Sequence record: MT682711.1 | Source of the DNA: Escherichia phage vB_EcoM_FB | Reading direction: 5' to 3' (one strand) | DNA: 64,000 nucleotides | Shown: positions 366 through 33,936 of the stretch, piece after piece | Layout of the letters: every line of letters starts with the position of its first letter | Numbering within the stretch: position 1 is the first letter of the stretch | Notes under the pieces: model-generated | Seen by the model: the letters and a program-made list of their open reading frames with translations, nothing else | Told to the model about the DNA's origin: nothing | Databases searched by the model: none | Position numbers and translations under genes: made by a program

Positions 366-1649
366 ATGGCAAAGATTAACGAATTACTGCGCGAGTCAAC
401 AACTACTTCCAGCAACTCATTGGGTCGCCCTAATCTTGTTGCTTTGACCCGTGCTACAACCAAATTGATTTACCGTGATATTATCGCCGAACAACGTACT
501 AGCCAGCCTATTGCTGCACTGTATGGTGTCAAATATCTTACCCCTGATAATGAATTTAGTTTCCAGACAGGTGCCTCTTATGGTGGTGAAGTTGGTTCTA
601 AAGACCGTGAAACTATCCCAGAACTCACAGATAAGGCCCAGGCGATTGCTCAGGGTGAATATTTCAAGTACCAGAATGTGGTTTATAAGGCTCTTAAAGC
701 AAGCCCACTCGCGTCCACTAGCGCCACAGAATTGGCTGATGCTCTTCAAGAAGGTTTAGTGTCATTAACATGTCGTCTGGTTCCTGATGCTGCCCATACC
801 ACTAAATTTGAAGCGAGTGATGTAGAAATCTCTGATGCTGTATTCCAGGTTAATAAATGGAATGCTCCGGTTAAGACCCGTAAATTGAAGACGGCTTTGA
901 CTGTAGAATTAGCGCAGGATATGGAATCAAATGGCTTTGACGCGCCGGCGTTCTTAGAAGACCTCTTGGCTACAGTAATGGCAGATGAAATTAATAAAGA
1001 CGTTCTGCAATCTCTAATAACCGTATCCAAACGTTATAAAGTTACTGGTGTATCTGATAACGGCATCATCGATTTGTCTTATGACAGTGCTCCTGAATCT
1101 GCACGTAAACTTTATGAACTCGTTTGTGAGATGAATTCTGAAATCCAGAAAACTACTTCTTATTCTGGCACGTTTGTTGTGGCTTCAAGTCGTGTGGCTG
1201 CAATGCTTGCAGGTTCTGGCTGGTTAAAACATAAACCCGAAGATAATAATTGGCTTCCGGAAACTGCATACGGATATTTGTTGAATGGTCTGCCTCTGTT
1301 TTGTGACGTTAACAGTCCATTAGATTATGTTACCGTTGGTGTTAAAGAGAATTACGGCGGTAATGAAGTTGTCGGTTCTATTTTCTACGCTCCCTATACC
1401 GAAGGCTTAGATTTAGATGACCAAGAACACGTCGGTGCTTATAAGGTTATTGTTGACCCGGATTCATTACAACCTTCTATTTCTCTGATGGTTCGTTATG
1501 CACTATCAGCTAACCCGTACACCGTGGCTAAAGACGATAAAGAAGCTCGTGTTATCGATGCAACCAATATGGATTTAATGGCTGGACAGAGCAATATGTC
1601 TTATCTGGTTGGCGTTAAACTTCCGGCAATTATTTACGAGGCTGATTAA
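366..1649 (+). CDS. 24: head vertex protein gp24
   Basis: 427 aa; N-terminus MAKINELLRESTTT and the RKLKT-LTVELAQD block match recalled T4 gp24/gp23 fold; AAGGAAAG SD. Confidence 0.9.
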   Translation: MAKINELLRESTTTSSNSLGRPNLVALTRATTKLIYRDIIAEQRTSQPIAALYGVKYLTPDNEFSFQTGASYGGEVGSKDRETIPELTDKAQAIAQGEYFKYQNVVYKALKASPLASTSATELADALQEGLVSLTCRLVPDAAHTTKFEASDVEISDAVFQVNKWNAPVKTRKLKTALTVELAQDMESNGFDAPAFLEDLLATVMADEINKDVLQSLITVSKRYKVTGVSDNGIIDLSYDSAPESARKLYELVCEMNSEIQKTTSYSGTFVVASSRVAAMLAGSGWLKHKPEDNNWLPETAYGYLLNGLPLFCDVNSPLDYVTVGVKENYGGNEVVGSIFYAPYTEGLDLDDQEHVGAYKVIVDPDSLQPSISLMVRYALSANPYTVAKDDKEARVIDATNMDLMAGQSNMSYLVGVKLPAIIYEAD

Positions 1650-2929
1650 TGTCTAAGATTGTAGACCTAATTAAAGAATCCACATTGACGGCTGCCAGCT
1701 CGGTTGGCCGTCCTGCTCTTCTTTCATACACCCAAGCAACTAATAAACGAATCTTTAAAGCCCTAGTTGCTGAACAAAAAACAAATCAACCGGTTGCTGC
1801 TCTGTATGGGGTACGTGTACTGAATCCTGACGACAAAATGACTTATCTTGGTGGAGCAACATTTGCGGGCCAGATTGGTATGACGGAACGTGAAAATATT
1901 CCAGAATTTACTGATTCATCTACAGCTTATGCGGTCGGTGATATGTTCCAGTTTGAAAGCGTAGTGTTTAAAGTTCTAGAAGCATCTCCTTTCGCCGGAA
2001 CCACAGAAACCAACCTCAGCGAAGTTATTTCTGAAGCAGTGGCAGCCGGCCATATCCGTATGGTGTCGGATGCTGCTATTACTTCTAAATTTGAACAAGG
2101 CCATCCTGAAATTGCTGAAACCGGATTCCGTATCGACAAATGGCAATCTGAAGTTAAATCACGTAAACTGAAAACTTCATTGACAGTCGAATTAGCCCAA
2201 GACCTAGAATCTAACGGGTTTAATGCTCCTAATTTCGTTGAAAATCTGCTAGGCATTCAAATGGCAGAAGAAATTAATAAGGATGTATTACAGTCATTAA
2301 TTACCGTGAGCTCTCGTTTTAAAGTCCAGGGTGTTTCTGAAAAGGGTGTATTAGACCTTACCAACCCTCGCTACGATAATGCCCAGGACCGTGCTCGCAC
2401 ATTATATTATTATATGTGTGAGATGAACTCTGCCGTCCAACGACAGACTTCTTTTGCCGGGACTTATGCAGTAGCTAGTTCTCGTTGTGCTGCTATTCTC
2501 GCCGCCTCTGGTTGGGTTGAGAAAAAGGAAGACCAGGACGAATTGGCTTATGGTATATTAAAGAATGGCCTACCACTTTATGCTGATATGAATAGTCTAT
2601 GTGATTATGTTATTGTTGGTGTAAATGCCCAGATGGGTGAAGGACAGACGGTCGCATCTTTATATTATGCGCCTTATACGGAAGGTTTGAATGTGGTTGA
2701 CGAAGAAGGTGATACTTCAGTTGGTGAATTTAAGGTTATTGTTGACCCGGAAAGCTTACAACCTACAGTAGCATTGCTTGCTCGTTATGCATTGACTGCA
2801 AACCCTTATACCGTCGCTAAGGACGATAAAGAAGCCCGCATTATTGATGGTTCTGATATGGACAAAATGGCTAATCAAAGTCAATTGAGTTCTTATCTCG
2901 GCGTAAAATTACCGCCTTTAGAAAAATAA
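1649..2929 (+). CDS. gp24-like paralog (second vertex/capsid-family protein)
   Basis: 426 aa, roughly half identical to the preceding ORF along its length (SRKLKTSLTVELAQDLESNGF); start overlaps upstream stop (TAATG). Confidence 0.85.
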   Translation: MSKIVDLIKESTLTAASSVGRPALLSYTQATNKRIFKALVAEQKTNQPVAALYGVRVLNPDDKMTYLGGATFAGQIGMTERENIPEFTDSSTAYAVGDMFQFESVVFKVLEASPFAGTTETNLSEVISEAVAAGHIRMVSDAAITSKFEQGHPEIAETGFRIDKWQSEVKSRKLKTSLTVELAQDLESNGFNAPNFVENLLGIQMAEEINKDVLQSLITVSSRFKVQGVSEKGVLDLTNPRYDNAQDRARTLYYYMCEMNSAVQRQTSFAGTYAVASSRCAAILAASGWVEKKEDQDELAYGILKNGLPLYADMNSLCDYVIVGVNAQMGEGQTVASLYYAPYTEGLNVVDEEGDTSVGEFKVIVDPESLQPTVALLARYALTANPYTVAKDDKEARIIDGSDMDKMANQSQLSSYLGVKLPPLEK

Positions 2930-2930
2930 A

Positions 2931-2948
2931 AGGGACCTTACGGTCCCT
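2931..2948. terminator. bidirectional hairpin between gp24 paralog (+) and rnlB (-)
   Basis: AGGGACC-ttac-GGTCCCT flanked by A and T runs. Confidence 0.6.
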
Positions 2949-2955
2949 TTATCGT

Positions 2956-3963
2956 TTATTTGGATACTAGTTCAACCCATACATGTCTTAATGTTTCTTT
3001 TACGCACTCAACGAGCTGCTTTTTAACTTCAACGGGATTTTCCGCATCAGTTAATTCCAATTCTTCACGGGCGGCTTCTTCAAGGATATCCTGGACTGTC
3101 AAGCCCATCACCTTTCCGAAATCCTTCGGCGATACTTCGCCAATCTTACTGATGACATTGTTAATGCGGTTAACAGTCACATAATCGGTGAATTGCCACA
3201 TCAAATCCATATCGTCTTGGGACAATACCACTGCAACTTTAATAGGCTTATCAGACTTTTTCTTCTCGCTGAATTTAGAGTTCTTACATTTAATCGCCAC
3301 ACGATTTCCGTTTGGAAGCCAGGTAGGAACATCAGGTTTCAATACAAAGCCTTCAGCCGTGAATACCTTACCTTCTACCTTAGGAATAAAATCGGTTGAG
3401 TTTGCAATAGTTAAGCCTGCGTTATCCACTGCAAAATTATAATCAGGAACAACTGAATCAAAATCATTAGGAAGTTTAATAAGGTCTTCAAAGCTACCAG
3501 TGGCCAGACATGGAGCTACCTTAAACTTATGGATAATACAGAAGGCTTCCATCAATGTATCGGTTAGAACAGATTCTGAGCCATCTTCTTTAGTAACTCG
3601 GATATCGAACACATAAAAGTCTTTATCGCCGTAGTCCACATTCTTCTGGATGCCTGTCCCAGCGAATTCGCCATAAATCTGGTATGACTGATAATTAATC
3701 GATTCAATTAGATGTTGAACTGATTTAATAGAATCAGCGTAGTTCTTAAGTACAATTTCATAACCATAGAAATCTTCAGCAGGGAGGATAGGGCCAGTGC
3801 GCTTGGCGCATGTGACTGCGTCACGTTCTATGATTAAACTAAAGTTGGTTCCATGAATCTTCTCACGTGCTACCCATTCACCACCAGTCAAACCGTTAGT
3901 ACGGAGTTTTTCGATAAACTTACTGTTGTAGTGGTTTTCGAGACTGCTATATTTCTTGAACAT
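2956..3963 (-). CDS. rnlB: RNA ligase 2
   Basis: 335 aa; [20 protein letters not shown] and [10 protein letters not shown] (KxHGxN adenylation motif) as in T4 Rnl2. Confidence 0.95.
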
Positions 3964-4049
3964 AAATCACCATAATAAATATAATTAAATAGAAGAGCTA
4001 GTAGTCTTCTGTCACCAAGCCAAATGGGTTAACGGAAGGACCTAGACCC

Positions 4050-4075
4050 ATTATATCACACCTAAATTTAAAGCA
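4050..4075 (-). promoter_or_regulatory. putative middle promoter (MotA box TGCTTTA, 13 nt, TATAAT) for rnlB
   Basis: RC reads aTGCTTTAaatttaggtgtgaTATAAT. Confidence 0.4.
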
Positions 4076-4077
4076 TA

Positions 4078-4287
4078 TTACTTTGAACTAGAACGCGCTT
4101 TGCGCCGAACCTTGTTGTTCAATCTTTTACGATAAACAACCTTTTCTTTCGCTTTAAATTTGGCCTTGGCTTGTTCTACATCAACCCATGCTTTGGCCAT
4201 GTCCTTAGCGGTCCCGCCCATTTTTTTAGCAATTTCTATAAAATTCAACCCAGATTCGTGTAAAAAATGTACTTTAACCTTATCCAT
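4078..4287 (-). CDS. hypothetical small basic protein (24.x position)
   Basis: start re-set to ATG at 4287 (MDKVKVHF...), downstream of the promoter -10; lysine/arginine-rich C-terminus. Confidence 0.5.
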   Translation of the reverse strand: MDKVKVHFLHESGLNFIEIAKKMGGTAKDMAKAWVDVEQAKAKFKAKEKVVYRKRLNNKVRRKARSSSK

Positions 4288-4316
4288 AACAATTCTCTCG
4301 TTGAGTTGGTAAACCC

Positions 4317-4347
4317 ATCTTAACATAGAATTTTTAACTTGTAAACA
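4317..4347 (-). promoter_or_regulatory. early-type promoter (GTTTAC ... TAAGAT)
   Basis: -35 GTTTAC and -10 TAAGAT on the minus strand upstream of ATG 4287. Confidence 0.4.
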
Positions 4348-4370
4348 GGAATTTTGTACTTTAATGCAAA

Positions 4371-4388
4371 ATGGGCCTTGCGGCCCAT
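4371..4388. terminator. hairpin downstream of hoc
   Basis: ATGGGCC-ttgc-GGCCCAT perfect 7 bp stem. Confidence 0.5.
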
Positions 4389-4390
4389 TA

Positions 4391-5239
4391 TTAATAAATG
4401 TAATCGTATATAATACCAGCTTCTAAAGCGGTGCGATGAATAATTCGACCGTTACGAGATTCTTGTACATCAACCTCTGAATAGTCGGTAATCATTTTTT
4501 GAAGTGTATATCGGTGCAAATAATACGGGCTATCCGGGTCATCTGTTTTCCAGTCTTTGCCTTCAAGAGTCATTTTCTGGATTTCATCCATAACCCACCA
4601 ACCAACCCAAATATATGCTGAATTACGAACAGGGAGTGGATGAACGTAAGGTAATTCGCCATCCGGAACCGGTGCGACTTTAGCCGTGACTGTTACATTA
4701 CCGGTTTTTGTGACAGTCGCCGGGTTATAATCAGTCGCCGAAACCGCAACAGAAACTTCAATAACCTGTGAACCTTCAGTGCTTGTATCGATTGCTAGAG
4801 TATCCGTGGTGCCAACTACAGGAGAACCGTCTTTCTTCCAAGAATAGGCAAAAGTAGCACCAGCAGGAGCGCCGACCACATCCGCTTTAAAAGAAGCTGG
4901 AGTGCCTTCCGGAACATTAATCGAAGCTGGGGTTAATGTCACAGAAACACCGGAAATGGTTTTATTCTGGATAGTTAAAGTTGTTTCGGCTTCAGCTGTT
5001 TCTGGTTCGCCGTCCGCCGGTGTAGTTGTTGCAACAACTTTAATAGTCTTGCTGCCTGCCGGGCCAACAGCAACATAATCCATTGCAGCAGTCACAGAAG
5101 ATTGAGGAACGCCATCAACGGTCCAGACAAATGATTCGGTACCTTCAGCTGCAGCACCGGAACCGGTCGCAGTGAAATTGGTTGTTGCTCCAATAACGGC
5201 CGTAGCCGCCAAAGGAGCCATATCTACGGTATAAGCCAT
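4391..5239 (-). CDS. hoc: Hoc outer capsid protein (Ig-like repeats plus capsid-binding C-terminus)
   Basis: 282 aa; C-terminal GELPYVHPLP...WVMDEIQKMT...YYLHRYTLQKM as recalled for T4 Hoc; Thr/Val-rich Ig-like repeats. Confidence 0.85.
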   Translation of the reverse strand: MAYTVDMAPLAATAVIGATTNFTATGSGAAAEGTESFVWTVDGVPQSSVTAAMDYVAVGPAGSKTIKVVATTTPADGEPETAEAETTLTIQNKTISGVSVTLTPASINVPEGTPASFKADVVGAPAGATFAYSWKKDGSPVVGTTDTLAIDTSTEGSQVIEVSVAVSATDYNPATVTKTGNVTVTAKVAPVPDGELPYVHPLPVRNSAYIWVGWWVMDEIQKMTLEGKDWKTDDPDSPYYLHRYTLQKMITDYSEVDVQESRNGRIIHRTALEAGIIYDYIY

Positions 5240-5248
5240 AATAAACCC

Positions 5249-5920
5249 TTATTTTAAAGTGACAAAAGATGAGTTACGAGTTTCACGTACTAATACTGAA
5301 CCATTACGATTAATGTAATAAATCAGACTAAATAATGTTTGGTGGGCAGAAGGATGTTGGAAAGCAGTTGGACGTTCTTTCCAATCCGGAGTCTCAGAAA
5401 TCCATTGGTAAATCCACCAAGGAACGGTGCAATAACCTGGGTTCTTACCGATAAGCAAAAGATTAGGACTGAAGTTTTCAGGTAAAGAGAATACAGGTTT
5501 TTCAGATTCAACAACCTTGGCTATAGCCCCTTTGAATTTCTCTTCGTCAAATGGAACATCCTCTTCGATAATCTCTACCTTAGGAAGTTCGGCTACCTCA
5601 ACGACTTCTACTGCAGCCTCAGGGGCATCGAACAACAGGGTGGCTTCTTCTTTAGCTGGTTCAGCACCATCAACAAATTCGTTAGCACCTGTAAGTTCGT
5701 CGGCAGCATCAATCAAATCAGAAATGGACAACCCTTCGGTTTCTGGAAGTGGTTCGTCAGCCAAGGCTTTAAAGCCTTCAGAGATATCGATAATCAAATT
5801 ATCAAACGAACGGGTTTTCTTAAGTTTTAAACCGAACTGTTCGCCGTATTCGATTAACTTAGCTTTAGCTTCTTTTTTATCTTCGAGTGCACGAAGCTCT
5901 TCAATATATTGAGTATCCAT
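5249..5920 (-). CDS. inh: Inh, inhibitor of prohead protease
   Basis: 223 aa; position between hoc and uvsW; acidic middle region; recalled T4 Inh similarity. Confidence 0.75.
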   Translation of the reverse strand: MDTQYIEELRALEDKKEAKAKLIEYGEQFGLKLKKTRSFDNLIIDISEGFKALADEPLPETEGLSISDLIDAADELTGANEFVDGAEPAKEEATLLFDAPEAAVEVVEVAELPKVEIIEEDVPFDEEKFKGAIAKVVESEKPVFSLPENFSPNLLLIGKNPGYCTVPWWIYQWISETPDWKERPTAFQHPSAHQTLFSLIYYINRNGSVLVRETRNSSFVTLK

Positions 5921-5939
5921 AATTAGTCTCTTGTTGGTG

Positions 5940-5947
5940 TATAAATA
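5940..5947 (+). promoter_or_regulatory. late promoter TATAAATA for uvsW
   Basis: exact TATAAATA 29 nt before ATG 5976. Confidence 0.55.
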
Positions 5948-5953
5948 TAACTA

Positions 5954-5961
5954 TATTTATA
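5954..5961 (-). promoter_or_regulatory. late promoter (TATAAATA on minus strand) for inh-hoc
   Basis: plus strand TATTTATA; divergent from the uvsW late promoter 7 nt away. Confidence 0.5.
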
Positions 5962-5975
5962 ACTGAGAATTACTT

Positions 5976-7472
5976 ATGCAAATTCAAGTACATTTTGATA
6001 ATTTTAGTCATGTCCGTATTGAATGCGATGAATCTACATTCTACGAACTCAGAGACTATTTTAGCTTTGAAGCTGATGGATATAAATTCAACCCTAAATT
6101 TCGTTATGGCCAATGGGACGGACGTATTCGCCTTCTGGATTACAACCGTAAACTTCCTTATGGATTGGTCCCTCAAATTAAAAAGTTCGCTGAACAATTT
6201 GAATACTCTCTGTGGATTGACCCACGTATTCTTGAACAGGAAGATATTTCTCGTGAAGATTTTGATTCATGGGTGGCTTCTCAAGAAATTTATTCAGGGT
6301 CTACCAAGATTGAGCCTCATTGGTATCAGAATGAAGCCGTATACAACGGCCTGACAAAACGTCGCGCAATTCTGAATTTACCTACATCTGCAGGTAAATC
6401 ATTAATCCAGGCACTCCTGAGTCGATATTACGTTGAGAACTATGAAGGTAAAATCCTCATCTTAGTTCCTACTACTGCACTTGTCGACCAGATGATTAAC
6501 GACTTCATCGATTATCGTCTGTTCCCTAAAGCCGCAATGCTTGGTATTCGTTCAGGTACTGCTCGTGATTCCGATGCAATGATTTATGTTTCAACTTATC
6601 AAACCGCTATCAAGCAACCTAAAGAATGGTTTGCTCAGTTCGGTATGTTTATGAACGACGAATGCCATTTGGCTACAGGTAAATCTATTTCTACTATCAT
6701 CGAAGGCCTAACCAACTGTATGTTTAAATTCGGTTTGTCGGGTTCTTTAAAAGATGGTAAAGCTAATTTAATGCAATATATGGGCCTGTTTGGTGATGTG
6801 TTTAAGCCAGTATCCACCTCCCAATTAATGGAAGAAGGACAGGTTACTGACCTTAAAATCAACAGTATTTTCCTTCGATACCCTGATGAATTCACCGTTA
6901 AGATGAAAGGTAAAGATTACCAATCAGAAATTAAAGTCATTACTAAGGCTACCCGTCGTAATAAATGGGTTGCTAATTTAGCTGTTAAGCTCGCTAAGAA
7001 AGAAGAGAACGTATTCTTGATGTTTAAAAACATCGAGCACGGTAAAACTCTTTTTGAAATGGTCAAAGAGCAGCATAAAGAAGTTTATTACGTATCAGGC
7101 GAAGTTAATACAGAAACTCGTAATGCTCTTAAGTTAATGGCGGAAAACGGTAAGGGTATTATTGTTGTGGCAAGTTATGGGGTATTTTCTACAGGTATTT
7201 CTGTTAAGAATCTCCATCACGTAGTATTTGCCCATCCTGTAAAATCTAAAATTATTGTGCTGCAAACCATCGGTCGTGTACTTCGTAAACATGCATCCAA
7301 GACCACCGCGCAGGTTTGGGATATTATAGACGACATGGGCGTTAAGCCTAAATCAGCAAATGCCAAAAAGAAGTATGTTCATTTGAATTATGCATTAAAA
7401 CATGCCTTAGAACGTATTCAACGTTATGCTGACGAAAAATTTAATTACGTAATGAAACAGGTGGATTTATGA
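5976..7472 (+). CDS. uvsW: UvsW RNA-DNA/DNA helicase
   Basis: 498 aa; LPTSAGKS Walker A, DECH box; N-terminus VHFDNFSHVRIECDESTF as in T4 UvsW. Confidence 0.95.
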   Translation: MQIQVHFDNFSHVRIECDESTFYELRDYFSFEADGYKFNPKFRYGQWDGRIRLLDYNRKLPYGLVPQIKKFAEQFEYSLWIDPRILEQEDISREDFDSWVASQEIYSGSTKIEPHWYQNEAVYNGLTKRRAILNLPTSAGKSLIQALLSRYYVENYEGKILILVPTTALVDQMINDFIDYRLFPKAAMLGIRSGTARDSDAMIYVSTYQTAIKQPKEWFAQFGMFMNDECHLATGKSISTIIEGLTNCMFKFGLSGSLKDGKANLMQYMGLFGDVFKPVSTSQLMEEGQVTDLKINSIFLRYPDEFTVKMKGKDYQSEIKVITKATRRNKWVANLAVKLAKKEENVFLMFKNIEHGKTLFEMVKEQHKEVYYVSGEVNTETRNALKLMAENGKGIIVVASYGVFSTGISVKNLHHVVFAHPVKSKIIVLQTIGRVLRKHASKTTAQVWDIIDDMGVKPKSANAKKKYVHLNYALKHALERIQRYADEKFNYVMKQVDL

Positions 7473-7696
7473 AGTCCTTTAAAGAAGTTATCTATGAAGC
7501 CTCTATCGAGAGCTTCATGTCTAAAATTAGTTCTTGTCAAACCATGGACGGTTTGGAGGAATTGGAGAAGTATTACAAAACCCGAAGTAAAGAAGCCGAA
7601 CTTCGTGATTCGGATGATATCAGTGTCCGTGATGCCCTAGCAGGTAAACGAACTGAATTAGAATCTATGGATGATGAAGAAGAGGAAGATTTCTAA
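7469..7696 (+). CDS. uvsW.1: UvsW.1 small acidic protein
   Basis: 75 aa; ATGA overlap with uvsW stop; acidic C-terminus DDEEEEDF. Confidence 0.75.
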   Translation: MKSFKEVIYEASIESFMSKISSCQTMDGLEELEKYYKTRSKEAELRDSDDISVRDALAGKRTELESMDDEEEEDF

Positions 7697-7704
7697 ACAA
7701 AAAA

Positions 7705-7726
7705 GGCCCAACCTTTCGGAAGGGCC
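7705..7726. terminator. bidirectional hairpin between uvsW.1 (+) and the uvsY-side genes (-)
   Basis: GGCCCaacc-tttc-ggaaGGGCC, imperfect stem, A-run upstream. Confidence 0.5.
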
Positions 7727-7755
7727 AATAACCATAAATGGCTATACACACTAGA

Positions 7756-7923
7756 CTAAAGTAGTAATTGGGTTTCGTTCAGCTGTTCTTCAGTGTTTTC
7801 CGTAACCGGCAAGCTTTGAACGTAATTATAGCATGAGCCCGGATGAACAGGACCTTTTTCTGTTTCAACAACCAATGCAGCATCGATTGGAGTTTTACAG
7901 ACAACGCAAATCTTATCTGACAT
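7756..7923 (-). CDS. small Cys-containing protein (uvsY.-2-like), 55 aa
   Basis: MSDKICVVCKTPIDAALVVETEKGPVHPGSCYNY...; below the ORF-track cutoff; AGGAGA SD. Confidence 0.6.
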   Translation of the reverse strand: MSDKICVVCKTPIDAALVVETEKGPVHPGSCYNYVQSLPVTENTEEQLNETQLLL

Positions 7924-7951
7924 GATTGTCTCCTTAGTTTATCTTACATAT

Positions 7952-8620
7952 CTATTTATTAACTAAATTCTTTTCAAATGTTTTAACCATATAGGCCACA
8001 TCTAAATCAGGAAATCCGTTCTCAACTATTATGTGTCGAAATTTCCTTCTTTTAGGCATTCCTTCCTTTATCCAAAGTTCATGAATTTCCTTTTCAAATT
8101 CCCATAATTTACTTCTCATTGAAGGCCTAGGCTGAGAATGTTTACCTATATGAGCTTCATTAGCCTCTTTAGTACGTTTTTTACCCGACTTAGCTAACGA
8201 CATAGCCTTTTTAGCTTCTTCTGTATGAGAATATGGATTTCTTTTATGGCCATCACTTATGGCTTTTTTGGTTAATTCAGACCTTGGGATGCCTCTTATT
8301 TTTGATGCGCCTTTTTCAACAGATTCAGGGGATTTGGATGTACAACTACCTCCTTCACCACCTGGCTTCATATTCATACAGCGAATACCTTTACCAAACT
8401 TATCCCAGGCCTCTTCTATCAAAAGCTCTTCGAATTCATAAGCAAGTTTTTCAGTATCGAAAAAGGTTCTATCGATTATTTCCATTCGGTACTTTAATCT
8501 TTTTGCATAATAGATGTAATTACCTGACCCTACATACTTATCAGATATTTTATCAGAAGAATGCTTGCCAAAATACAGCCTAGTTCCGTTAGGCGAGTAT
8601 ACTAAAGTTTGGTAACACAT
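7952..8620 (-). CDS. free-standing GIY-YIG-type homing endonuclease with NUMOD3-like repeats
   Basis: LVYSPNGTRLYFGKHSS...YVGSG fits GIY/YIG spacing; three S-x-E-x-K-x-S/G helix repeats; ATG at 8620 chosen (track start 8650 is TTG). Confidence 0.6.
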   Translation of the reverse strand: MCYQTLVYSPNGTRLYFGKHSSDKISDKYVGSGNYIYYAKRLKYRMEIIDRTFFDTEKLAYEFEELLIEEAWDKFGKGIRCMNMKPGGEGGSCTSKSPESVEKGASKIRGIPRSELTKKAISDGHKRNPYSHTEEAKKAMSLAKSGKKRTKEANEAHIGKHSQPRPSMRSKLWEFEKEIHELWIKEGMPKRRKFRHIIVENGFPDLDVAYMVKTFEKNLVNK

Positions 8621-8630
8621 GTGGTACTTT

Positions 8631-9068
8631 TTATTTTTCACCTGCTTCAAATTTCCTGAGCTCCAACATATTCTTTAATGAGAAACCTCTAGATTTGACC
8701 GCATCCAATGCCGAACTACAAAAGTCTTGTAATAAGGCCCAATACTGGATTGACGTATCGATTTTAATTACGCTTGAATCCGCCGCCATTACAGTCTTTA
8801 ATTCCGACTTCTCGTACTGGTCCATACAAACCTCATCACCAGGCTCTCCACGTCCCGTGTAGAAATCTAATCTCTTCTTAAGAGAGGTCTTTTTCTGGAT
8901 TTCTAATCGCATTATCTCTTTCTTACAATTCGTATATAGTCTTAGCCATTTGCTGTGCAGCAAAACGTTGTTCTGTACTTCATACTGTAAACGAGTCCCA
9001 TCAATCTTTAAATCTTCATCTAATGCATCTTGGAACGATTCTAATTTATATTCAATCTCTTTACTCAT
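8631..9068 (-). CDS. uvsY: UvsY recombination mediator
   Basis: start re-set to ATG 9068; TRLQYEVQNNVLLHSKWLRLY...DFCSSALDAVKSRGFSLKNMLELRKFEAG as in T4 UvsY. Confidence 0.9.
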   Translation of the reverse strand: MSKEIEYKLESFQDALDEDLKIDGTRLQYEVQNNVLLHSKWLRLYTNCKKEIMRLEIQKKTSLKKRLDFYTGRGEPGDEVCMDQYEKSELKTVMAADSSVIKIDTSIQYWALLQDFCSSALDAVKSRGFSLKNMLELRKFEAGEK

Positions 9069-9126
9069 AGCATGTTTCCTGTTGAATGACCGTAGGACCA
9101 TTATACACCATTCGTTTGTACAGCAA

Positions 9127-9516
9127 TTAACCACTCTGTGAGAGCTGGATTCTAATTTGCTCTAATGTGTCCGGGTCGTCAACAATACTAAACTGAACTG
9201 TTACTATAATAGAGTTGTCATCATAAACAGGGGTTACACCTACAGCAAGAGCAGAAATTCTGGGTTCGAAGTTCCGCACAGCGGAAACTATATTACGCTT
9301 AATGGTGTCTGTGATTAATGGGGTAATATTCTCAAACAACTGATTGCTAATATCACATCCAAATTCAGGCATAAAAGGGCGTGAACCTTTGCGAGTAGTA
9401 ATAATGCCTAACAAACTATTTTTTACTGCACGAGCACCTGTAGCTTTAGCGACGTCTCTATTCCAAGACGTCCTCATTTCAGGGTCTAAATCTGAATACA
9501 TTTTATTGATATTCAT
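9127..9516 (-). CDS. 25: baseplate wedge protein gp25
   Basis: 129 aa; SLLGIITTRKGSRPFMPEFGCD as in T4 gp25. Confidence 0.9.
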   Translation of the reverse strand: MNINKMYSDLDPEMRTSWNRDVAKATGARAVKNSLLGIITTRKGSRPFMPEFGCDISNQLFENITPLITDTIKRNIVSAVRNFEPRISALAVGVTPVYDDNSIIVTVQFSIVDDPDTLEQIRIQLSQSG

Positions 9517-10139
9517 TACATCACCTTAAAGAACTCTTTAAGTCCCTCAATAACGTGGACGGTGTGTTCACCACATTCACAAGAAATAGGTATAGCCAAA
9601 ATAGGCTTAGGGGCGACTAGTGCATCATAAACTTCTTTTATATCTTTTTCTGTTATCACAGAATAAAGGTCATCAAGTTCCGCATCGCTTAAATCGGAAA
9701 GAAAAAGCTTTTCGCCTGCAGAAGTTAAAATATAATCGATACACCCGGCGACCATCATAGCTCTATTTTTATCTTCAAAGAGTTTAGGATATCTGAAAAC
9801 AATTTTAAAGTTGCCAAAGTCTTTAATAACATCCGGCTCTTTACCCAATGTTGCTCGAGTTAGTGTCATAGGGACAACCTGTGAGCGACCACAACTACAA
9901 CTCCACTCACGTTCTATATTCACTTCAGCTAATGAATGGGCCCACAGGTTTATCACCAGGAGCTCAGATTCTTGCTTGTTTAAATCACGAGCATCTGTGC
10001 AATTCGAAATGAGTTCATTGATAAAGGACTCTATTCTGCCTTCTAATTTAGCTTGGAGCAAGTCCTTATACTCTCTGAGGGTAAATGCTCTGCATTTTAT
10101 GGTTTTGTTTTTAATTTTTACGTCAAAAGTATAATTCAT
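9516..10139 (-). CDS. 26: baseplate hub subunit gp26
   Basis: 207 aa; AAGGAG SD; synteny 25-26-51-27. Confidence 0.85.
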   Translation of the reverse strand: MNYTFDVKIKNKTIKCRAFTLREYKDLLQAKLEGRIESFINELISNCTDARDLNKQESELLVINLWAHSLAEVNIEREWSCSCGRSQVVPMTLTRATLGKEPDVIKDFGNFKIVFRYPKLFEDKNRAMMVAGCIDYILTSAGEKLFLSDLSDAELDDLYSVITEKDIKEVYDALVAPKPILAIPISCECGEHTVHVIEGLKEFFKVM

Positions 10140-10157
10140 TGTCTTCTCCTTTAAGCT

Positions 10158-10165
10158 TATTTATA
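10158..10165 (-). promoter_or_regulatory. late promoter (TATAAATA on minus) for 26-25
   Basis: plus strand TATTTATA 19 nt upstream of ATG 10139. Confidence 0.6.
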
Positions 10166-10169
10166 AATA
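10162..10169 (+). promoter_or_regulatory. late promoter TATAAATA for gene 51
   Basis: overlaps the minus-strand copy in TATTTATAAATA. Confidence 0.6.
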
Positions 10170-10189
10170 CATCAATAAGAGGACACCCT

Positions 10190-10942
10190 ATGGCTAATAT
10201 AGTACGTTGTGAAATGCCTGATGGAGTCCACCGATTTAAACCTTTTACAGTAGCTGATTATCGTGATTTTATTTTGATTCGAAATGACATGAATAATAAA
10301 TCGCCTGAAGAGCAAAAACAAATTTTAGGTGAGTTACTGGAAGAATACTTCGGTGAATATCCTATGTCATGGCGCCCATATATGTTCATTGAACTTTATA
10401 CGTCATCACTCGGCAAGACCAAAATTCCTATCCGATACACTTGTAGTAAGTGTGAAAAGGATAGACAAGTTTTATTCAATTTGAAACAGACCAAGTTAGA
10501 TAATCCCACAATTGAAGTGGCCGGCTTGAAGCTAACATTCAAATTTCCGGAAATAGAATATCAAGACAAATCCGAATTGATTCTGAACACCCTCCAAACC
10601 GTGGAAGATGAAAACGGGAAATATAATTGGACTGACCTTTCTGAAGAAGACCAATTAGCCGTAATAGATGCTATAGACTTATCCACTTTAGAGGATATAG
10701 TCAAACAAACTAGCCCTATTAATTTTGAACTAAAATATGGATGCTGTAATCGTAGAACAATTACGTATACCGATATTTTAGAGGTGTTTAAGCTTATAGT
10801 CAACCCGGATGAGATATTTTTATTTTACCAAATAAACCATTTATTGGTAAAGAACAATTATTCATTAGAAAGCATTATGCAGATGATTCCAATCGAACGC
10901 GGTATTGCTTTGTCTTTGGTTGAAAAGGACCTTAAGAAATGA
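10190..10942 (+). CDS. 51: baseplate hub assembly protein gp51
   Basis: start re-set to ATG 10190 ([21 protein letters not shown]), downstream of the late promoter. Confidence 0.85.
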
Positions 10943-12108
10943 GTTCAAAAACTATGCAACGTGAAGGCTTTCCTAATATTAGTATACGCCTTTACGAAGA
11001 TTATGACGCCTGGTTAGAGCATCGTTTTGTTGAACTAGGCGCGACATTTACTACTCTAACAATGCGAGATGGGCTTTACGGTAGTAATGAAGGGTTGCTT
11101 CAGTTTTATGATGCAAAGAACCTTCATACTAAAATGGATGGTGAGCAGATTATTCAAATTTCTGTTAAGAATGCTAACTCTGAACGTACCCAATCAAGAA
11201 TTTATGGAAGTAAACACTTTGCTGTAGGAGTGGATTCGAAGGGCGACAATATCATAACAATACAACTCGCCCCAATCCACTTTTTAGAGAATCTTAAATT
11301 TAGTCGTATGTTCTTCCCGAGTGTTCAAGAAACATTAACTGAAATGATTGGTGTTATTTATCAAGACCGTCCGCTTCTTGCTCCTCCTTTGAACGGGATA
11401 AACGTTTACGTTCCTAATGTTCCTTGGTGTGATTCAATGGACCGTTATATGGAATTTGTACGAGAAGTAGGTATGGCCGTTGAATCTGATAAATTTGTAT
11501 TTGTCTGGGAAGATATAGATGGTATTTCTATCATGGACTACGAATTTATGGTTAACCAAGAGCCTATTAATTTTGTAGTGGGTGAGCCGCGATTAATAGG
11601 TCAATACGTTCAAGATATGGATACACCTATCGCATTTGATTTTGAATGGTTAACTAAAGCCAACCAACATTCCAGAAAACCATATGAAAACGCTACTGTA
11701 TACGCCCACTCTTTCTTAGACAAAAACGCCACACGAATTACTTTTGGTGACGGGCAAAACAGTATATTGGTTTCTCGCTCCGGTGGATATTCTGATTATA
11801 CCTACCGAAACGGTTTTGAAGAAGCTGATAGATTAGTTACTATGGCCCAATACGATGGATACGCTCATTGTAAGGTATATGGTAACTTTGAACTAACTCC
11901 AGGCGATAAGATTAATTTCTATGACCCTAAAAACCAATTCCAGTACGATTTTTATGTAGACGAAGTTATTCATGAAGTGAGTAACAATACATCAATTACA
12001 AACCTTTATATGTTTACTAATGGTAAGCCTATTAAGATTGAAGAACCGCCGAAGGTTAAAAATGAACTTAAAACTGATACTCCCGATCAAGAAAATAACG
12101 CTGGGTGA
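10939..12108 (+). CDS. 27: baseplate hub subunit gp27
   Basis: 389 aa; ATGA overlap with gene 51 stop. Confidence 0.9.
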
Positions 12109-12589
12109 CAAAGAGATTTCCATTCCTAAATTGGGTCTTAAACACCAGAAATTGGTTAAAGATGAAAAGGACCCTTACAAGGCCCTCTATATGACAATGG
12201 AATCCATTTGTAAAGGACTGTCTGCAGCAGAAACAGATTTTGCTGCTTTACACCTTTTAGAATTCAACGGACGATTAAAAGAAAAAGTAACTAAAGATGG
12301 ATTCACATATAATTTAAATGACCTTTATATTTGCCAACGACTTGAATTCCAGTTCCAAGGTAAAACATTTAAATTTAAATCACACGAACCATTTCAAACA
12401 TTTGGTCCTGTTGATAGTGTACTACAATCTCTTTATCTTGGTGATGATGTACCAGATTTTCTGGATATGCCTGCCTTTGTTGCTACATGGGCCGACGATA
12501 TAACTTCTACTGTAGCTATCCCTGGTCCTAATGGTCCTATCAAAGGATTGCTTAAAATCATGGATATCTTAAATGAAGAACGAATCTAA
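12062..12589 (+). CDS. 28: baseplate hub distal subunit gp28
   Basis: start re-set to ATG 12062 ([28 protein letters not shown]). Confidence 0.8.
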
Positions 12590-14309
12590 TCAGAATAGTT
12601 TTCGTCGCAATAAACTGATTGAAGAAATGGCTCCTCAGCGTCGTGCTGAGGCGCTAGCCCAAACTCAGAACGACGAATTAGGAAATATATCAGATGTTTT
12701 ATCCGATTCCCAGGCGGCGTCTGAATTGCTCTCTGAAGTTGTTGAGACAAAGTCTAACCAGATTATTAATTCTGTAGACCGAGTAGACAAAAGCGTCCAA
12801 GATGTTGTCGCTGGAACAGAATTAACGGCCGAAGCCATATCAGAACAAACCCAACAGTCTAAAGCTCTTTCGGATGCATTAAACGAAAAGATTAATAAGC
12901 TTTCTAATATGTTGGAGGCTAAATTTTCTGGTATTTCTATTCCACCGGAAGGGAGCTCATTAAAGGTTATTGAAGACTCTATTCCAGAAGAACCTAAGGC
13001 CGAAACTCCTAAAGTTCCTGCTGTTGTTGAAGATATTCTTCCACCTGAAGATAATAAACCTGACGCCGAATTTATGCCTGAGCCTCCTAAAAATTCAGAT
13101 GAAGGTAAAGAAGGTGATAAGACTTCTCTTTCCGAGAAAATCGAAGCCCTTACTAAAATAACTGAAAAGGGATTTAAAGCTTCTATAGGCGTCGCTGATA
13201 GAATTTCAGGCATGCTTTTTAAGTATACCATTACCGCTGCCGCTGAAGCTGCTAAACTCGCAGCAGGTTTAGTCCTTTTAATATTTGGTATAGATGCCAT
13301 TCGCGTATACTTCCAATATTTCATGGACCAATTTGAGTCAGGGTGGAAAGAATTTAACGATAAGTTTAAAGAGTGGGGACCATTACTTGAAGGGCTAATG
13401 ACATGGGCCAAGAATGCTGAAGCCATGTTTAGTGAAGGAAACTGGTTAGGTCTGGCTGAAGCTATTATTCGTGGTATGGTTAATCTTACCAAAAATATGG
13501 CACAACTTTTAATGCTTGGTATTTCTAAGTTGATTTCTGCTATTTTAAGTAAAATACCTGGTATGGGTGATTTAGCTGAAAACGTAGAGGCTTCTGCTTT
13601 AATGTCATATCAGCAAAATACCGGAGCCACTTTGGACGATGAAGACCAAACTAAAGTGGCCAAGTACCATGATAGACGTTCAGCCGAGGCTTTAGAAACA
13701 GCCGAGAAAATGAATAAGAAGTATAAGGATAAACCTGAGCTTATAAACCAGGCAGAGAAATACGGTAATCTTACTAAAGAACAAGCCGACCAATTACGCG
13801 CAGGTGGAATTGACACAAGCTTCCGTGACCTCCCTGAAGAAGAACGTTTAGAGTATTTCAAGAAACGTGATAAAGCTCAGGCTGATATTATTCGTTTGAC
13901 ACAAACCGCTGATAATATAATGAAGCCAGATTCTAAAGATATCGAAAATGCTAAAGCATTTAAAGCTGATATCGAGAAACAATTGGCCGACCCTATTATG
14001 GCTAAAGGTGGGGCACCGAAAGACCTTAATATCCAGCAATTACTTGATAAGATGAATAAATCTTTAGAGAAATTTAATGAAGCTGAAAAGCCTAAACCTG
14101 CTTCTGTAGCGGAATCTCCTGAAAATACCCAGGTTAAAAAGGTTGATGAGCAAATGAGAGCAAAGGAAAATGCTAAATATAGTCAGCAAGCTCCAACTCA
14201 AATAAATCAGCAAACGAATATCAAGAAAACGAGTAAGACAAGCTATAATATGCCTCCACAGTCCTCTACTCCTGCTCCTGGTATGCGTCAAGCTACTAAA
14301 GTTAATTAG
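12573..14309 (+). CDS. 29: baseplate hub / tail length determinator gp29
   Basis: 578 aa; synteny 28-29-48. Confidence 0.85.
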   Translation: MKNESNQNSFRRNKLIEEMAPQRRAEALAQTQNDELGNISDVLSDSQAASELLSEVVETKSNQIINSVDRVDKSVQDVVAGTELTAEAISEQTQQSKALSDALNEKINKLSNMLEAKFSGISIPPEGSSLKVIEDSIPEEPKAETPKVPAVVEDILPPEDNKPDAEFMPEPPKNSDEGKEGDKTSLSEKIEALTKITEKGFKASIGVADRISGMLFKYTITAAAEAAKLAAGLVLLIFGIDAIRVYFQYFMDQFESGWKEFNDKFKEWGPLLEGLMTWAKNAEAMFSEGNWLGLAEAIIRGMVNLTKNMAQLLMLGISKLISAILSKIPGMGDLAENVEASALMSYQQNTGATLDDEDQTKVAKYHDRRSAEALETAEKMNKKYKDKPELINQAEKYGNLTKEQADQLRAGGIDTSFRDLPEEERLEYFKKRDKAQADIIRLTQTADNIMKPDSKDIENAKAFKADIEKQLADPIMAKGGAPKDLNIQQLLDKMNKSLEKFNEAEKPKPASVAESPENTQVKKVDEQMRAKENAKYSQQAPTQINQQTNIKKTSKTSYNMPPQSSTPAPGMRQATKVN

Positions 14310-14317
14310 GATTAATA

Positions 14318-15406
14318 ATGAAAGTAAAAGAACTTGACTTTGATGTAGCCTCCTTGTTTAAAGGAGGTTCAAAGACCTCCGCAGGTCAATCTAAAACACC
14401 ACCAATAAAAACCACGGTAACCGCTCAGTATCCAGCTGAGCGGGCTTCAGGTAATGATACCTCAACCGATATGGTATTAAACGACCTCTATAAAAATGGA
14501 TTGCTTTTTACCGCATATAATTTTAGTTCTCGTGTATCTCCGGATTTGCGTAACGACCGTTCGAGTCAAATGACTAAAAAGTTCTCAAGTGCAGCCAGCA
14601 AATTAACAGGCAATAGTGGAACATATAGTGCTGTTAAAAACTTATTTGGTGGAAATACTAAGGGCGTTAAATTTGATACCCAAGCCTTAGCTAATATCCT
14701 TTTACCTCGTTCTAAATCTGATGTGGATTCCGTATCACACAAATTTAATGATGTTGGTGAGTCCTTAATTACTAAAGGCGGTGGTACTGCTACAGGTATT
14801 TTAAGTAACGTTGCTAGTACCGCGGTATTTGGTGCATTAGAATCTGTGACTAACGGCGTAATGGCTGATTCAGGCGAACAGATATACACTACAGCTCGTA
14901 GTATGTACGCCGGTCCGGATAACCGTACTAAGGTATTCACTTGGGAAATGACTCCACGAAATGCCCAAGACCTTATCCAGATTATTAAAATATACGAAAT
15001 CTTCAACTATTATTCTTACGGCGAAACGGGTAATTCGGCTTTCGCAGGTGAATTAAAAGAGAAGATTGATACTTGGTATCGTTCTACATTTAAAAAAGAA
15101 GCTATTGACAAGTTTGATGGTAAGCTATTAGGGGAAAGTATTACAAGCTTCCTTTCTAATGTTATTGTGGTAAGTAACCCAACCATTTGGTATATCCGAA
15201 ACTTTGGTGATAGCAGTTCATATGATGGTCGTGAAGATATTTTTGGCCCATGCCAAATCCAGAGTATCCGTTTTGATAAAACTCCGGACGGCCATTTTAA
15301 CGGATTGGCTATTGCTCCTAACTTACCATCTACGTTTAGTTTAGAAGTTACTTTCCGTGAAATTATTACTCTGAACCGTGGCTCACTTTATACGGAAGGA
15401 TTCTAA
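14318..15406 (+). CDS. 48: baseplate-tail tube junction protein gp48
   Basis: 362 aa; synteny. Confidence 0.85.
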   Translation: MKVKELDFDVASLFKGGSKTSAGQSKTPPIKTTVTAQYPAERASGNDTSTDMVLNDLYKNGLLFTAYNFSSRVSPDLRNDRSSQMTKKFSSAASKLTGNSGTYSAVKNLFGGNTKGVKFDTQALANILLPRSKSDVDSVSHKFNDVGESLITKGGGTATGILSNVASTAVFGALESVTNGVMADSGEQIYTTARSMYAGPDNRTKVFTWEMTPRNAQDLIQIIKIYEIFNYYSYGETGNSAFAGELKEKIDTWYRSTFKKEAIDKFDGKLLGESITSFLSNVIVVSNPTIWYIRNFGDSSSYDGREDIFGPCQIQSIRFDKTPDGHFNGLAIAPNLPSTFSLEVTFREIITLNRGSLYTEGF

Positions 15407-16347
15407 TGTATACTTTACAAGAATTTCAGAATCAGGCAATTAATATTGACCTACAAAGGAATAACCTGTTTAGTGTGGTATTTGCCACAGTTCCTTCTTC
15501 TAAATCTCAGACGCTCCTCGACCAGTTCGGTGGAGCTTTATTTAACAATATCCCATTGAATAGCGATTTGTTTGGTATTACACAAGGAGAGTTGACCCAA
15601 GGTGTTACGACATTAGTGACAGCGGGCACTCAGAAGTTGATTCGTAAGTCAGGCATAAGTAAATATTTGATTGGAGCTATGTCATCCAGGGTTGTGCAGA
15701 GCTTACTAGGAGAGTTTGAAGTAGGTACATATCTGATGGATTTTTTCAATATGGCCTATCCTACGGCAGGTCTTTTAGTCCACGCCGTTAAAATCCCGGA
15801 TAATACTTTGAACTATGAAATGGATTTGAACCACAACTCACCTAACATCAAAATTACCGGAAGAGAATATTCTCCATTAGTATTAAGCTTCCGTATGGAT
15901 TCTGAAGCTGCTAACTACCGTGCTTTTAATGATTGGGTCAATAGTGTTCAAGACCCTATTACACAATTAAGAGCATTACCGGAGGATGTTGAAGCTGACA
16001 TTCAAGTCAACCTTCATTCCCGTAATGGATTACCACATACGGTAGTAATGCTTAATGGTTGCGTTCCAATGAGCGTATCTTCCCCGGAATTATCTTACGA
16101 CGGTGATAACCAAATTGCTTCATTTGATGTTACATTTGCTTATAGAAGTGTACAGACTGGTGCAGTTGGCAAACAAGCTGCTTATGAATGGTTGGAAGAT
16201 AAAGTCCTTAAAGGCGTGGCGGGTATAAGTGAGAGCAATTCCCTGAGTTCTTCAGTGGCCAAATTAAGTAGACTTTCAGGAGCTTCTAGTGGATTAACAG
16301 GATTAGTTAATACATTCGGCGGGCGTGCTATTAATAATGGAATATAG
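15406..16347 (+). CDS. 54: baseplate-tail tube initiator gp54
   Basis: 313 aa; TAATG overlap with gene 48. Confidence 0.85.
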   Translation: MYTLQEFQNQAINIDLQRNNLFSVVFATVPSSKSQTLLDQFGGALFNNIPLNSDLFGITQGELTQGVTTLVTAGTQKLIRKSGISKYLIGAMSSRVVQSLLGEFEVGTYLMDFFNMAYPTAGLLVHAVKIPDNTLNYEMDLNHNSPNIKITGREYSPLVLSFRMDSEAANYRAFNDWVNSVQDPITQLRALPEDVEADIQVNLHSRNGLPHTVVMLNGCVPMSVSSPELSYDGDNQIASFDVTFAYRSVQTGAVGKQAAYEWLEDKVLKGVAGISESNSLSSSVAKLSRLSGASSGLTGLVNTFGGRAINNGI

Positions 16348-20881: not shown

Positions 20882-20913
20882 AATAATTCCTCTTTAATAA
20901 CCTTATTTATGCC

Positions 20914-20931
20914 AGAAAAGGCCCGAAGGCC
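20914..20931. terminator. hairpin upstream of alt copy 2
   Basis: AAAGGCC-cgaa-GGCCTTT. Confidence 0.5.
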
Positions 20932-20935
20932 TTTA

Positions 20936-21118
20936 TTAAAGTACTAACAGCGTACGGTACACTTCAAATTTAGGACCCTTTTCATAGCGGTCGAAATTAT
21001 CTTTAAAATCAGCGAACGCGATTTCATTTTCAAATTCAAGGACAATTTGGGACACTGCAGTGGAGACATCCCCACCTTCTTTATATCCAATAACCACGGT
21101 TTCTAAATAAGCTTTCAT
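20936..21118 (-). CDS. hypothetical small protein (60 aa)
   Basis: start re-set to ATG 21118, one nt after the ligase stop. Confidence 0.45.
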   Translation of the reverse strand: MKAYLETVVIGYKEGGDVSTAVSQIVLEFENEIAFADFKDNFDRYEKGPKFEVYRTLLVL

Positions 21119-21119
21119 A

Positions 21120-22643: not shown

Positions 22644-22653
22644 AATCACCTCA

Positions 22654-22932
22654 TTAGTCATGGATTCTATTATAAGCCACATCAGCCAAAAGCAAGTCTA
22701 ATCGCTTATGATAAGAGAACACAAATCTCATTCGCCCATCAGATTTGAACTTGGACATAAAGTGGACATAAATGAATCCCTGTTCGACGCATTCGCGCCA
22801 AACAGGATGGTCTTTAGCCGGATTTACATCAAATGAGTAATCATGATTCACATGACGAATAAACTGGTTTACATGGCCATAATCCATTGTAGTGGTAGGA
22901 CCATAGTCTGAAATTGTATGAACTACAAACAT
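22654..22932 (-). CDS. hypothetical protein (30.1 position)
   Basis: start re-set to ATG 22932 with GAGGTTAAT SD. Confidence 0.5.
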   Translation of the reverse strand: MFVVHTISDYGPTTTMDYGHVNQFIRHVNHDYSFDVNPAKDHPVWRECVEQGFIYVHFMSKFKSDGRMRFVFSYHKRLDLLLADVAYNRIHD

Positions 22933-22933
22933 A

Positions 22934-23572
22934 TTAACCTCGAGCAATCCATTCAACTGCGGCATTATTACGAAGGGATTCGATTGCTGCGATATCGTCC
23001 CATGAATTAACCTTTACGGCCAAATTAGGTTTAAAGTCACGTTCACCACGAGCCAACCAATAAACTTGGATATCCATGAGAACATTAGATGCGGCATCAC
23101 AGTGGTGAGCCAAATCATCAACATAAAACTTAATACGTTTACCGTACGTATTTTTAGCTCTTATGAAGAGGTCTTCTTTTGATTCTGAATGACCACACAT
23201 CAGAATCTCCTTGAATGCGCCAGGGAACAAAGCATTCAAATTGAATTGTCTATTCAGCAGTGCATCAATTGAGTCGCCTAGCGCAGTCACGGCTACAAAA
23301 TCGAAGTCTTTTTTGAGCTTGTTGATATGTTTTAATGCGTCCATGTAAGGAGACAGATAACGAATAAAATCTGACTGATTGTACTTCTCGATTAAACGAG
23401 CGCCTAATTCATTATCACAATTAAACAGCTCACCAGGAGATAAGAAACGTTCGTCCTGAATCATATTCAAAATATGTTCTAAAGGCAAATTATATTTCTG
23501 TGCGAAATAAGGCAAGCCGGACTGCCAACTTAAACATACTCCATCGATATCTGTTAAGATAACTGGTTTCAT
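22934..23572 (-). CDS. HAD-superfamily hydrolase-like protein (30.2 position)
   Basis: N-terminal ILTDIDGV matches HAD motif I (DxDGx). Confidence 0.6.
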   Translation of the reverse strand: MKPVILTDIDGVCLSWQSGLPYFAQKYNLPLEHILNMIQDERFLSPGELFNCDNELGARLIEKYNQSDFIRYLSPYMDALKHINKLKKDFDFVAVTALGDSIDALLNRQFNLNALFPGAFKEILMCGHSESKEDLFIRAKNTYGKRIKFYVDDLAHHCDAASNVLMDIQVYWLARGERDFKPNLAVKVNSWDDIAAIESLRNNAAVEWIARG

Positions 23573-29811: not shown

Positions 29812-31015
<1,204 letters not shown>

Positions 31016-31049
31016 AATAATTTCCTCAATTTTTATAATCCGTAGGAGC

Positions 31050-33928: not shown

Positions 33929-33936
33929 AGCAATAA

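Follow-up and report, generated by a model that had tools for sequence, protein, structure and literature searches.

What is the long reading frame that separates uvsY from the small gene downstream of it in Escherichia phage vB_EcoM_FB, and does it encode a mobile endonuclease? The phage is a T-even of the genus Dhakavirus, a relative of JS98, IME08 and VR5, and the DNA analysed here (the window) is a 64,000-nucleotide stretch of its genome (sequence record MT682711.1), to which all positions refer unless another segment is named. Here, we argue that the frame is very probably a free-standing homing endonuclease of the T4 Seg family, built from a GIY-YIG domain, a glycine-rich hinge, three to four NUMOD3-like helices and an HTH-like domain. 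Membership in the Seg family rests on sequence, fold, architecture, genomic habit and distribution, and by analogy with SegA, SegB, SegC, SegE, SegF and SegG the product would be expected to cleave DNA and to home. The gene is not among the named seg genes, and it already carries the label "putative endonuclease" in one database record.

The locus and its reading frame

The plus strand of this region carries uvsW (5976-7472), followed by uvsW.1 (7469-7696). The minus strand carries, in order of increasing position, a uvsY.-2 homologue (DUF2685; 7756-7923), the reading frame itself (7952-8641), uvsY (8631-9068) and gp25 (9127-9516). A preliminary description of this DNA, made from the letters alone, had likewise placed the frame between the small uvsY-side gene and uvsY, and had described the same interval in T4 as holding only uvsY.-1 and uvsY.-2; the T4 annotation agrees, and puts segE on the other side of uvsW. 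When a 1.8-kb query around the frame is compared with phage sequences, 588 records match, the best being IME08, at 91.8% across the whole query; in VR5 the match is at 97.6% and confined to the flanks.

The minus-strand frame of 7952-8650 given in the preliminary description exists as described, with 232 aa from a TTG at 8650 and 222 aa from an ATG at 8620. Both of the starts that it proposed, the TTG or a weak ATG, are present, but it overlooked a GTG at 8641, from which the product has 229 aa and ends at the TAG of 7952-7954, and the TTG is not conserved, because the corresponding codon is TCG in a 68%-identical homologue (P0002). The GTG is most likely the true start, considering that gene callers chose it for P0001 (a metagenomic protein identical to this one), for the coding sequence in IME281 and for P0002; that a conserved histidine (H7), kept in the 68% homologue, lies upstream of the ATG; that residues 6-16 form strand beta-1 in the predicted model; and that, throughout the family, homologues have just one or two residues ahead of the Y-H-x-x-Y strand. 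Metagenome gene callers as a whole are divided among 222, 229 and 232 aa. Counted from the GTG, the frame overlaps the last 11 nt of uvsY.

The copies in FB, IME281, IME341 and IME08 occupy one and the same site and are orthologous; those of the IME phages are 91% identical to the FB frame, and the differences lie in annotation only. The IME281 copy (AWD91099.1) is annotated "putative endonuclease". In FB the entry is "hypothetical protein FB_0187" (177 aa; P0155), 100% identical to the C-terminal 177 aa of the frame, and in IME341 it is a 141-aa "hypothetical protein" (7554-7979 of the IME341 segment examined); both start at internal ATGs, with part or all of the nuclease domain missing. The IME08 copy (2057-2746 of the IME08 segment examined) has no annotation, and a literature search found no paper describing the gene. 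The lack of an annotation in IME08 and the N-terminally shortened versions in IME341 and FB would also be expected of a chance reading frame or an annotation artefact. We regard that explanation as already refuted by the hundreds of homologues, the confident predicted fold and the dN/dS values well below 1 that are described below.

Relationship to the Seg endonucleases

Neither the whole protein nor its N-terminal 99 aa matches the Pfam GIY-YIG families (PF01541, PF19835), even at E<=10, and a search of NCBIfam gave no GIY-YIG match for the protein. The preliminary description had named an empty profile search as grounds for abandoning its GIY-YIG reading, and Pfam and NCBIfam did, literally, come back empty, whereas comparisons with Seg proteins, with PHROG and with the catalytic motifs were all positive. 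How much weight should the empty searches carry? When T4 SegE was used as a control, PF19835 scored 36.5 bits, narrowly above threshold, and PF01541 fell below its threshold. Since SegE itself barely passes, the Pfam test is insensitive for the Seg clade, and the missing match reflects a limit of profile sensitivity and not a structural feature of the protein. Having no Pfam or NCBIfam match, the gene is therefore called "hypothetical" by annotation pipelines.

More sensitive comparisons place the protein among the homing endonucleases. It matches PHROG 314 (phrog_314, "homing endonuclease") at E 1.4e-16, and in BLASTP comparisons it is related to T4 SegE (E 9e-12; 35% identity over the N-terminal 133 aa), SegA (E 2.5e-10; 24% over 231 aa) and SegF (E 1.3e-8; 26% over 203 aa). 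The similarity to SegA and SegF, weak yet significant, spans nearly the whole length, and the domain order is therefore common to all three proteins. An exhaustive HMMER search of a representative library recovered 765 relatives at E<=1e-3; the relatives came from this search, a word-indexed protein search having returned merely 2-3 proteins. Among the homologues aligned with the query (n=61), PF19835 (SegE_GIY-YIG) is found in 21 and PF01541 also in 21, with NUMOD3 in 39. A phmmer search of PDB sequences gave no match, and an HMM search of the 64-kb window found no Seg-like gene other than this one. The similarity to SegE, SegA and SegF and the PHROG 314 assignment, together with the presence/absence polymorphism discussed below, support the preliminary reading of the frame as a free-standing GIY-YIG/NUMOD homing endonuclease.

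The best-matching characterised protein is SegE, a free-standing GIY-YIG homing endonuclease that is encoded between inh and uvsW and cleaves related phages within uvsW (Kadyrov et al. 1997, as cited in PMC2988022), and that is listed as an active endonuclease in the table of PMC2988022. Like SegE, the FB protein is free-standing, and the two have in common the motif set Y-H-x-x-Y ... Y-x-GKHS ... D-x-Y-x-GSG ... E ... N-x3-GG. Their genes share the inh-uvsW-uvsY neighbourhood, about 2 kb apart in map terms, but occupy different sites within it, inh/uvsW for segE and uvsY/uvsY.-2 for the FB gene. The C-terminal halves of the two proteins are not alignable by BLASTP, and SegE passes PF19835 whereas the FB protein does not. 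Moreover, SegE starts at an AUG and a promoter of its own is described for it in PMC2988022, whereas the FB gene likely starts at a non-AUG codon and no promoter of its own was found. SegA and SegF, for which cleavage sites have been mapped, are encoded at other loci and show low identity to the FB protein; the overlap between T4 gene 56 and segF is 11 nt, as is that between uvsY and the FB frame. The closest paralogue outside the lineage of the frame is a 197-aa Seg-like protein of KIT01, a phage of the same genus (BBI57541.1, annotated hypothetical; 31% over 223 aa, E 1.4e-29). Its gene also flanks uvsY, but on the 5' side, between gene 25 and uvsY, and the site occupied in FB is empty in KIT01.

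Catalytic motifs and domain architecture

The N-terminal GIY-YIG catalytic domain spans aa 1-98 (8348-8641, minus strand) and carries Y10, Y23-x-G25, K26-H27, Y36-x-G38-S39-G40, E71 and N90. Nine positions are invariant in the 61-sequence alignment (Y10, Y23, G25, Y36, G38, G40, E71, N90 and G94), and K26 and H27 are nearly so. The GIY-YIG fold, a three-stranded sheet with helices, is seen in the predicted model. I-TevI, the GIY-YIG endonuclease encoded by the td intron of T4, resembles the protein at the profile level only: the family profile finds I-TevI at E 0.15, and hhalign of that profile with the I-TevI catalytic domain gives E 3e-5, the I-TevI sequence used in hhalign having been entered by hand and agreeing with the I-TevI fragments in the profile match. 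The residues paired by hhalign (FB protein/I-TevI) are Y10/Y6, Y23/Y17, G25/G19, E71/E75 and N90/N90. The first GIY-YIG motif is thus represented by Y10 (MCY) in strand beta-1, opposite I-TevI Y6, and the second by Y23-F-G25, opposite the YVG of I-TevI.

The helix of I-TevI that bears Arg27 falls opposite a gap in the hhalign alignment, where the family has instead a Seg-type loop, GKHS-x6-D-x-Y-x-GSG, and no equivalent of this catalytic arginine was identified in that alignment. Has the nuclease, then, lost its activity? A decaying relic, a catalytically dead one, or a domesticated DNA-binding protein that no longer cuts and is inherited with its flanks, might well lack both this arginine and a Pfam or NCBIfam GIY-YIG match. 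However, active T4 Seg proteins have the same GKHS...Y-x-GSG loop, so the apparent absence of an Arg27 equivalent is probably a trait of the Seg family and not a defect; the region is the same in T4 SegE, which the table of PMC2988022 reports as active. A relic is also difficult to square with a frame that is intact in all five copies examined, with the retention of every family-invariant residue and with a dN/dS of 0.06 in the catalytic domain. Three further facts, the weak non-AUG start signals, the lack of a promoter of its own and a gene dS close to that of the flanks, with the long vertical residence that it suggests, are compatible with a relic (see below); weighing both sides, we consider it an improbable explanation.

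Beyond the catalytic domain, the putative Seg endonuclease continues with a glycine-rich hinge, GGEGGS, where the predicted model has pLDDT <50 at residues 99-101. The hinge precedes a linker of three to four NUMOD3-like helix units at aa 103-170 (8132-8335, minus strand), recognised from a sub-threshold Pfam match, from homologues and from predicted helices. The NUMOD3-like repeats of the preliminary description can be seen here as sequence units, readable as S-x-E-x3-K-x-S-x4-G over residues 103-157 of the 229-aa product, and in the predicted helices, of which there are four short ones (105-115, 122-134, 141-152 and 158-169); Pfam NUMOD3 finds a single unit, at E 0.012 and 15.9 bits against a gathering cut-off of 20.4. 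The C-terminal helical domain, aa 175-229 (7955-8119, minus strand), resembles a three-helix HTH of the homeodomain/Myb-like kind and presumably binds DNA. This order of nuclease, NUMOD3 and HTH is typical of the Seg type; I-TevI has a zinc finger in addition to the Arg27 helix, neither of which is detectable in the FB protein.

Distribution and replacement of uvsY.-1

The gene is found in 6 of the 84 records that match the flanks at >=80% identity, these six representing three phages (IME08, IME341 and IME281, each with a GenBank and a RefSeq record). About 93% of Dhakavirus-like records lack it and have a different small gene between the same junctions. A protein cluster at 90% identity contains 19 variants from metagenomes and isolates, FB_0187 among them, and in metagenomic T4-like contigs the same site is taken by the 68%-identical homologue. 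A scan of IMG/VR re-found only IME281 and IME341, and a metagenome scan yielded one partial contig.

Perhaps the gene is not selfish at all, but a conserved, non-mobile accessory gene, for example one encoding a nuclease that acts on host DNA or in repair beside uvsY. Purifying selection, likely co-transcription and probable translational coupling with uvsY, which encodes a recombination mediator, would all suit such a role. It is difficult to see, however, why an accessory gene of this kind should be missing from most of its relatives, with another small gene in its place, why it should have the typical Seg architecture, and why unrelated HEGs should lie at neighbouring intergenic sites in sister phages; we judge this alternative very unlikely indeed.

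How did the putative endonuclease gene come to lie at this site? Homology with empty-site phages ends exactly at 7961/7962 and 8623/8624, and alignment with phages that lack the gene marks 7962-8623 as the DNA that is absent from them. In UP19, KIT01, JS98, dhabil and MX01, the sequence between the same junctions is about 78 nt long and forms the body of a uvsY.-1 of 32 aa, with an ATG that overlaps the TGA of uvsY (ATGA). Other versions of uvsY.-1, a long one in the case of VR5, occupy the site in VR5 and CLB_P2; across the phages without the endonuclease gene, the uvsY.-1 found there encodes either 32 or 77 aa. The GTG start of the endonuclease frame lies inside the retained 3' end of uvsY, and its end is formed by the retained last codons of uvsY.-1, AAT AAA TAG. 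The genes on either side are intact and remain collinear with their counterparts in phages without the gene, and the gene is free-standing, in neither an intron nor an intein. The comparison of this interval among T-even phages that the preliminary description had proposed thus reveals a gene that is polymorphic among close relatives and bounded by precise junctions. That description had called the gene "inserted"; judging from the alignments, the event was a replacement of uvsY.-1 and not a pure insertion.

Seg enzymes cut near their own gene (PMC2988022). A search of the retained flanks for carrier-specific substitutions, which could mark an immune target, found none outside the insert. If this enzyme likewise cuts near its own gene, the simplest route to carrier immunity would be a target within or spanning the replaced uvsY.-1 segment. 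The predicted target is the short uvsY.-1 of JS98-like phages, or its junction with uvsY.

Expression

No promoter of the sigma-70-like, exact late (TATAAATA) or MotA type was found directly upstream of the gene. Farther upstream on the minus strand, a MotA-type middle-promoter-like element, TGCTGTA-N13-TATAAT, precedes uvsY (9100-9125), at a place equivalent to that where the T4 annotation puts the uvsY transcript start and oriF, and an exact late promoter, TATAAATA, lies upstream of gene 26 (10158-10165). The MotA-like element is the likely source of a uvsY-endonuclease-uvsY.-2 transcript. With no promoter of its own found and with these promoters upstream of uvsY, the gene is most likely read from uvsY transcripts. 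A GC-rich hairpin, GGCCCAACC-TTTC-GGAAGGGCC (7705-7726), followed by a T-run on the minus strand, lies between the convergent uvsW.1 and uvsY.-2. Read from the sequence by eye, it is presumed to terminate that transcript; a scan for sigma-70 and terminator consensus sequences found nothing relevant and did not report this hairpin. A AATAAATA box upstream of uvsY.-2 (7953-7960, minus strand) overlaps the last codons of the endonuclease gene, and both this box and the Shine-Dalgarno sequence (SD) of uvsY.-2 (AAGGAG) are untouched and common to phages without the endonuclease gene.

The signals for translation are weak. The TTG has an AGGA 3 nt ahead of it, which is 12 nt from the GTG, and no SD precedes the ATG at 8620, so the "no good SD" of the preliminary description was roughly right. 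RNA structure around the start region does not differ from that of shuffled sequences (z 0.39). With respect to the uvsY stop, the GTG comes 8 nt earlier and the ATG 11 nt later. It is plausible that translation of the frame is coupled to termination of uvsY, much as the ATGA overlap couples uvsY.-1 to uvsY in phages with an empty site. As a rule, the seg and mob genes of T4 also have poor translation-initiation regions and no early promoters (PMC2988022).

Late-promoter boxes occur elsewhere in the window in a paired arrangement. Two divergent intergenic regions, inh/uvsW (5940-5961) and 26/51 (10158-10169), carry exact TATAAATA boxes back to back on opposite strands, an arrangement that fits bidirectional late transcription from these spacers.

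Selection, age and mosaicism

Comparison with the IME281 copy by the Nei-Gojobori method gives a dN/dS of 0.11 for the whole gene, with the low value quoted above for the catalytic domain and 0.13 for the rest; against the 68% homologue, dN/dS is 0.16. The corresponding values are 0.005 for uvsY and 0.014 for the 3' part of uvsW. The protein is under purifying selection, looser than that on its essential neighbours.

The dS of the gene relative to IME281 is 0.38, and that of the flanks is 0.54-0.56. Since the first value is nearly as large as the second, the gene appears to be an old resident that has been at this site for about as long as the flank alleles have diverged; these distances do not point to a recent invasion.

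Has homing left a trace in the surrounding DNA? Identity to IME281 is 99.8-100% at 5000-6739 and about 98-100% beyond about 9424, and it drops to 91.6% across 6740-9424, a 2.7-kb patch that has the gene at its centre and whose flanks are 98-99% VR5-like. The patch was considered as a co-conversion tract and then downgraded: the same comparison with IME281 along all 64 kb of the window puts more than 60% of it in similarly divergent patches, and because such patches are common across the window, this one is weak evidence and is not creditable to the endonuclease.

On the scale of the window, stretches 99-100% identical to IME281 (4001-6500, 10001-16000, 20001-24000 and 30501-38000) alternate with patches of 75-95% identity, and several segments do not align with IME281 at all (about 16745-18092, 41805-42491, 47610-48154, 52115-52768 and 62700-64000). 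In the gp24 (head vertex) region, at 770-3000 (1-2530 of the IME281 segment examined), divergence from IME281 is strong, with 80-92% identity. The annotation of IME281 shows gp24 as two tandem copies, and blastn gives secondary cross-matches between them.

Variation is also found at the 3' end of uvsY, where the last ~70 nt (8634-8700, minus strand) exist as two sharply different alleles among the Dhakaviruses compared. The four carriers related at about 91% (window, IME08, IME281 and IME341) have type I, as do the non-carriers KIT01 and UP19, whereas VR5, JS98, dhabil, MX01 and CLB_P2 have type II. The uvsY of FB is VR5-like and then of type I from about 8700, so that type I goes with the endonuclease gene even in FB, an indirect sign of mobility that is more specific than the divergent patch; the uvsY next to the 68% homologue has a divergent 3' end of its own.

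Endonuclease genes around uvsW and uvsY

Taken together, different T-even phages have four distinct free-standing endonuclease genes in the inh-uvsW-uvsY-25 region, each at an intergenic site of its own and all within about 4 kb. T4 segE (4058-4675 of the T4 segment, plus strand) lies in inh/uvsW, an HNH-type gene of UP19 (828-1523 of the UP19 segment, plus strand) in uvsW/uvsW.1, the Seg-like paralogue of KIT01 (2569-3162 of the KIT01 segment, minus strand) in 25/uvsY, and the Seg-like gene of FB (7952-8641 of the window, minus strand) in uvsY/uvsY.-2.

One could imagine that this region, with its recombination functions and, in T4, oriF, is a hot zone for such genes, that the FB gene and the KIT01 paralogue are rivals for the inheritance of uvsY alleles, and that the FB gene has become entrenched through its coupling to uvsY and its overlap with the signals of uvsY.-2. 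We offer this as a speculation that is rather doubtful as it stands. If it were true, the gene would be a stably entrenched selfish element and not a transient one.

Proposed homing at uvsY and its implications

How might the putative Seg endonuclease spread? The gene would be transcribed within the middle and late transcripts of uvsY, and its weak translation would probably depend on coupling to the end of uvsY. When a carrier and a gene-less relative infect the same cell, the enzyme would make a double-strand break near the uvsY/uvsY.-1 junction of that relative, and T4-type recombination repair would then copy the gene and adjacent markers from the carrier, removing the small uvsY.-1 in the process. 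Carriers would probably be immune, the target being in the replaced segment.

The uvsY/uvsY.-2 site is not among the insertion sites given for T4 in PMC2988022, and recognition of the gene adds a new Seg-type site to the catalogue of T-even mobile endonucleases. The practical value of the finding lies in annotation, and no concept is changed by it. The gene may also help to explain why Dhakavirus phages, which are in development for therapy, are locally mosaic around uvsY.
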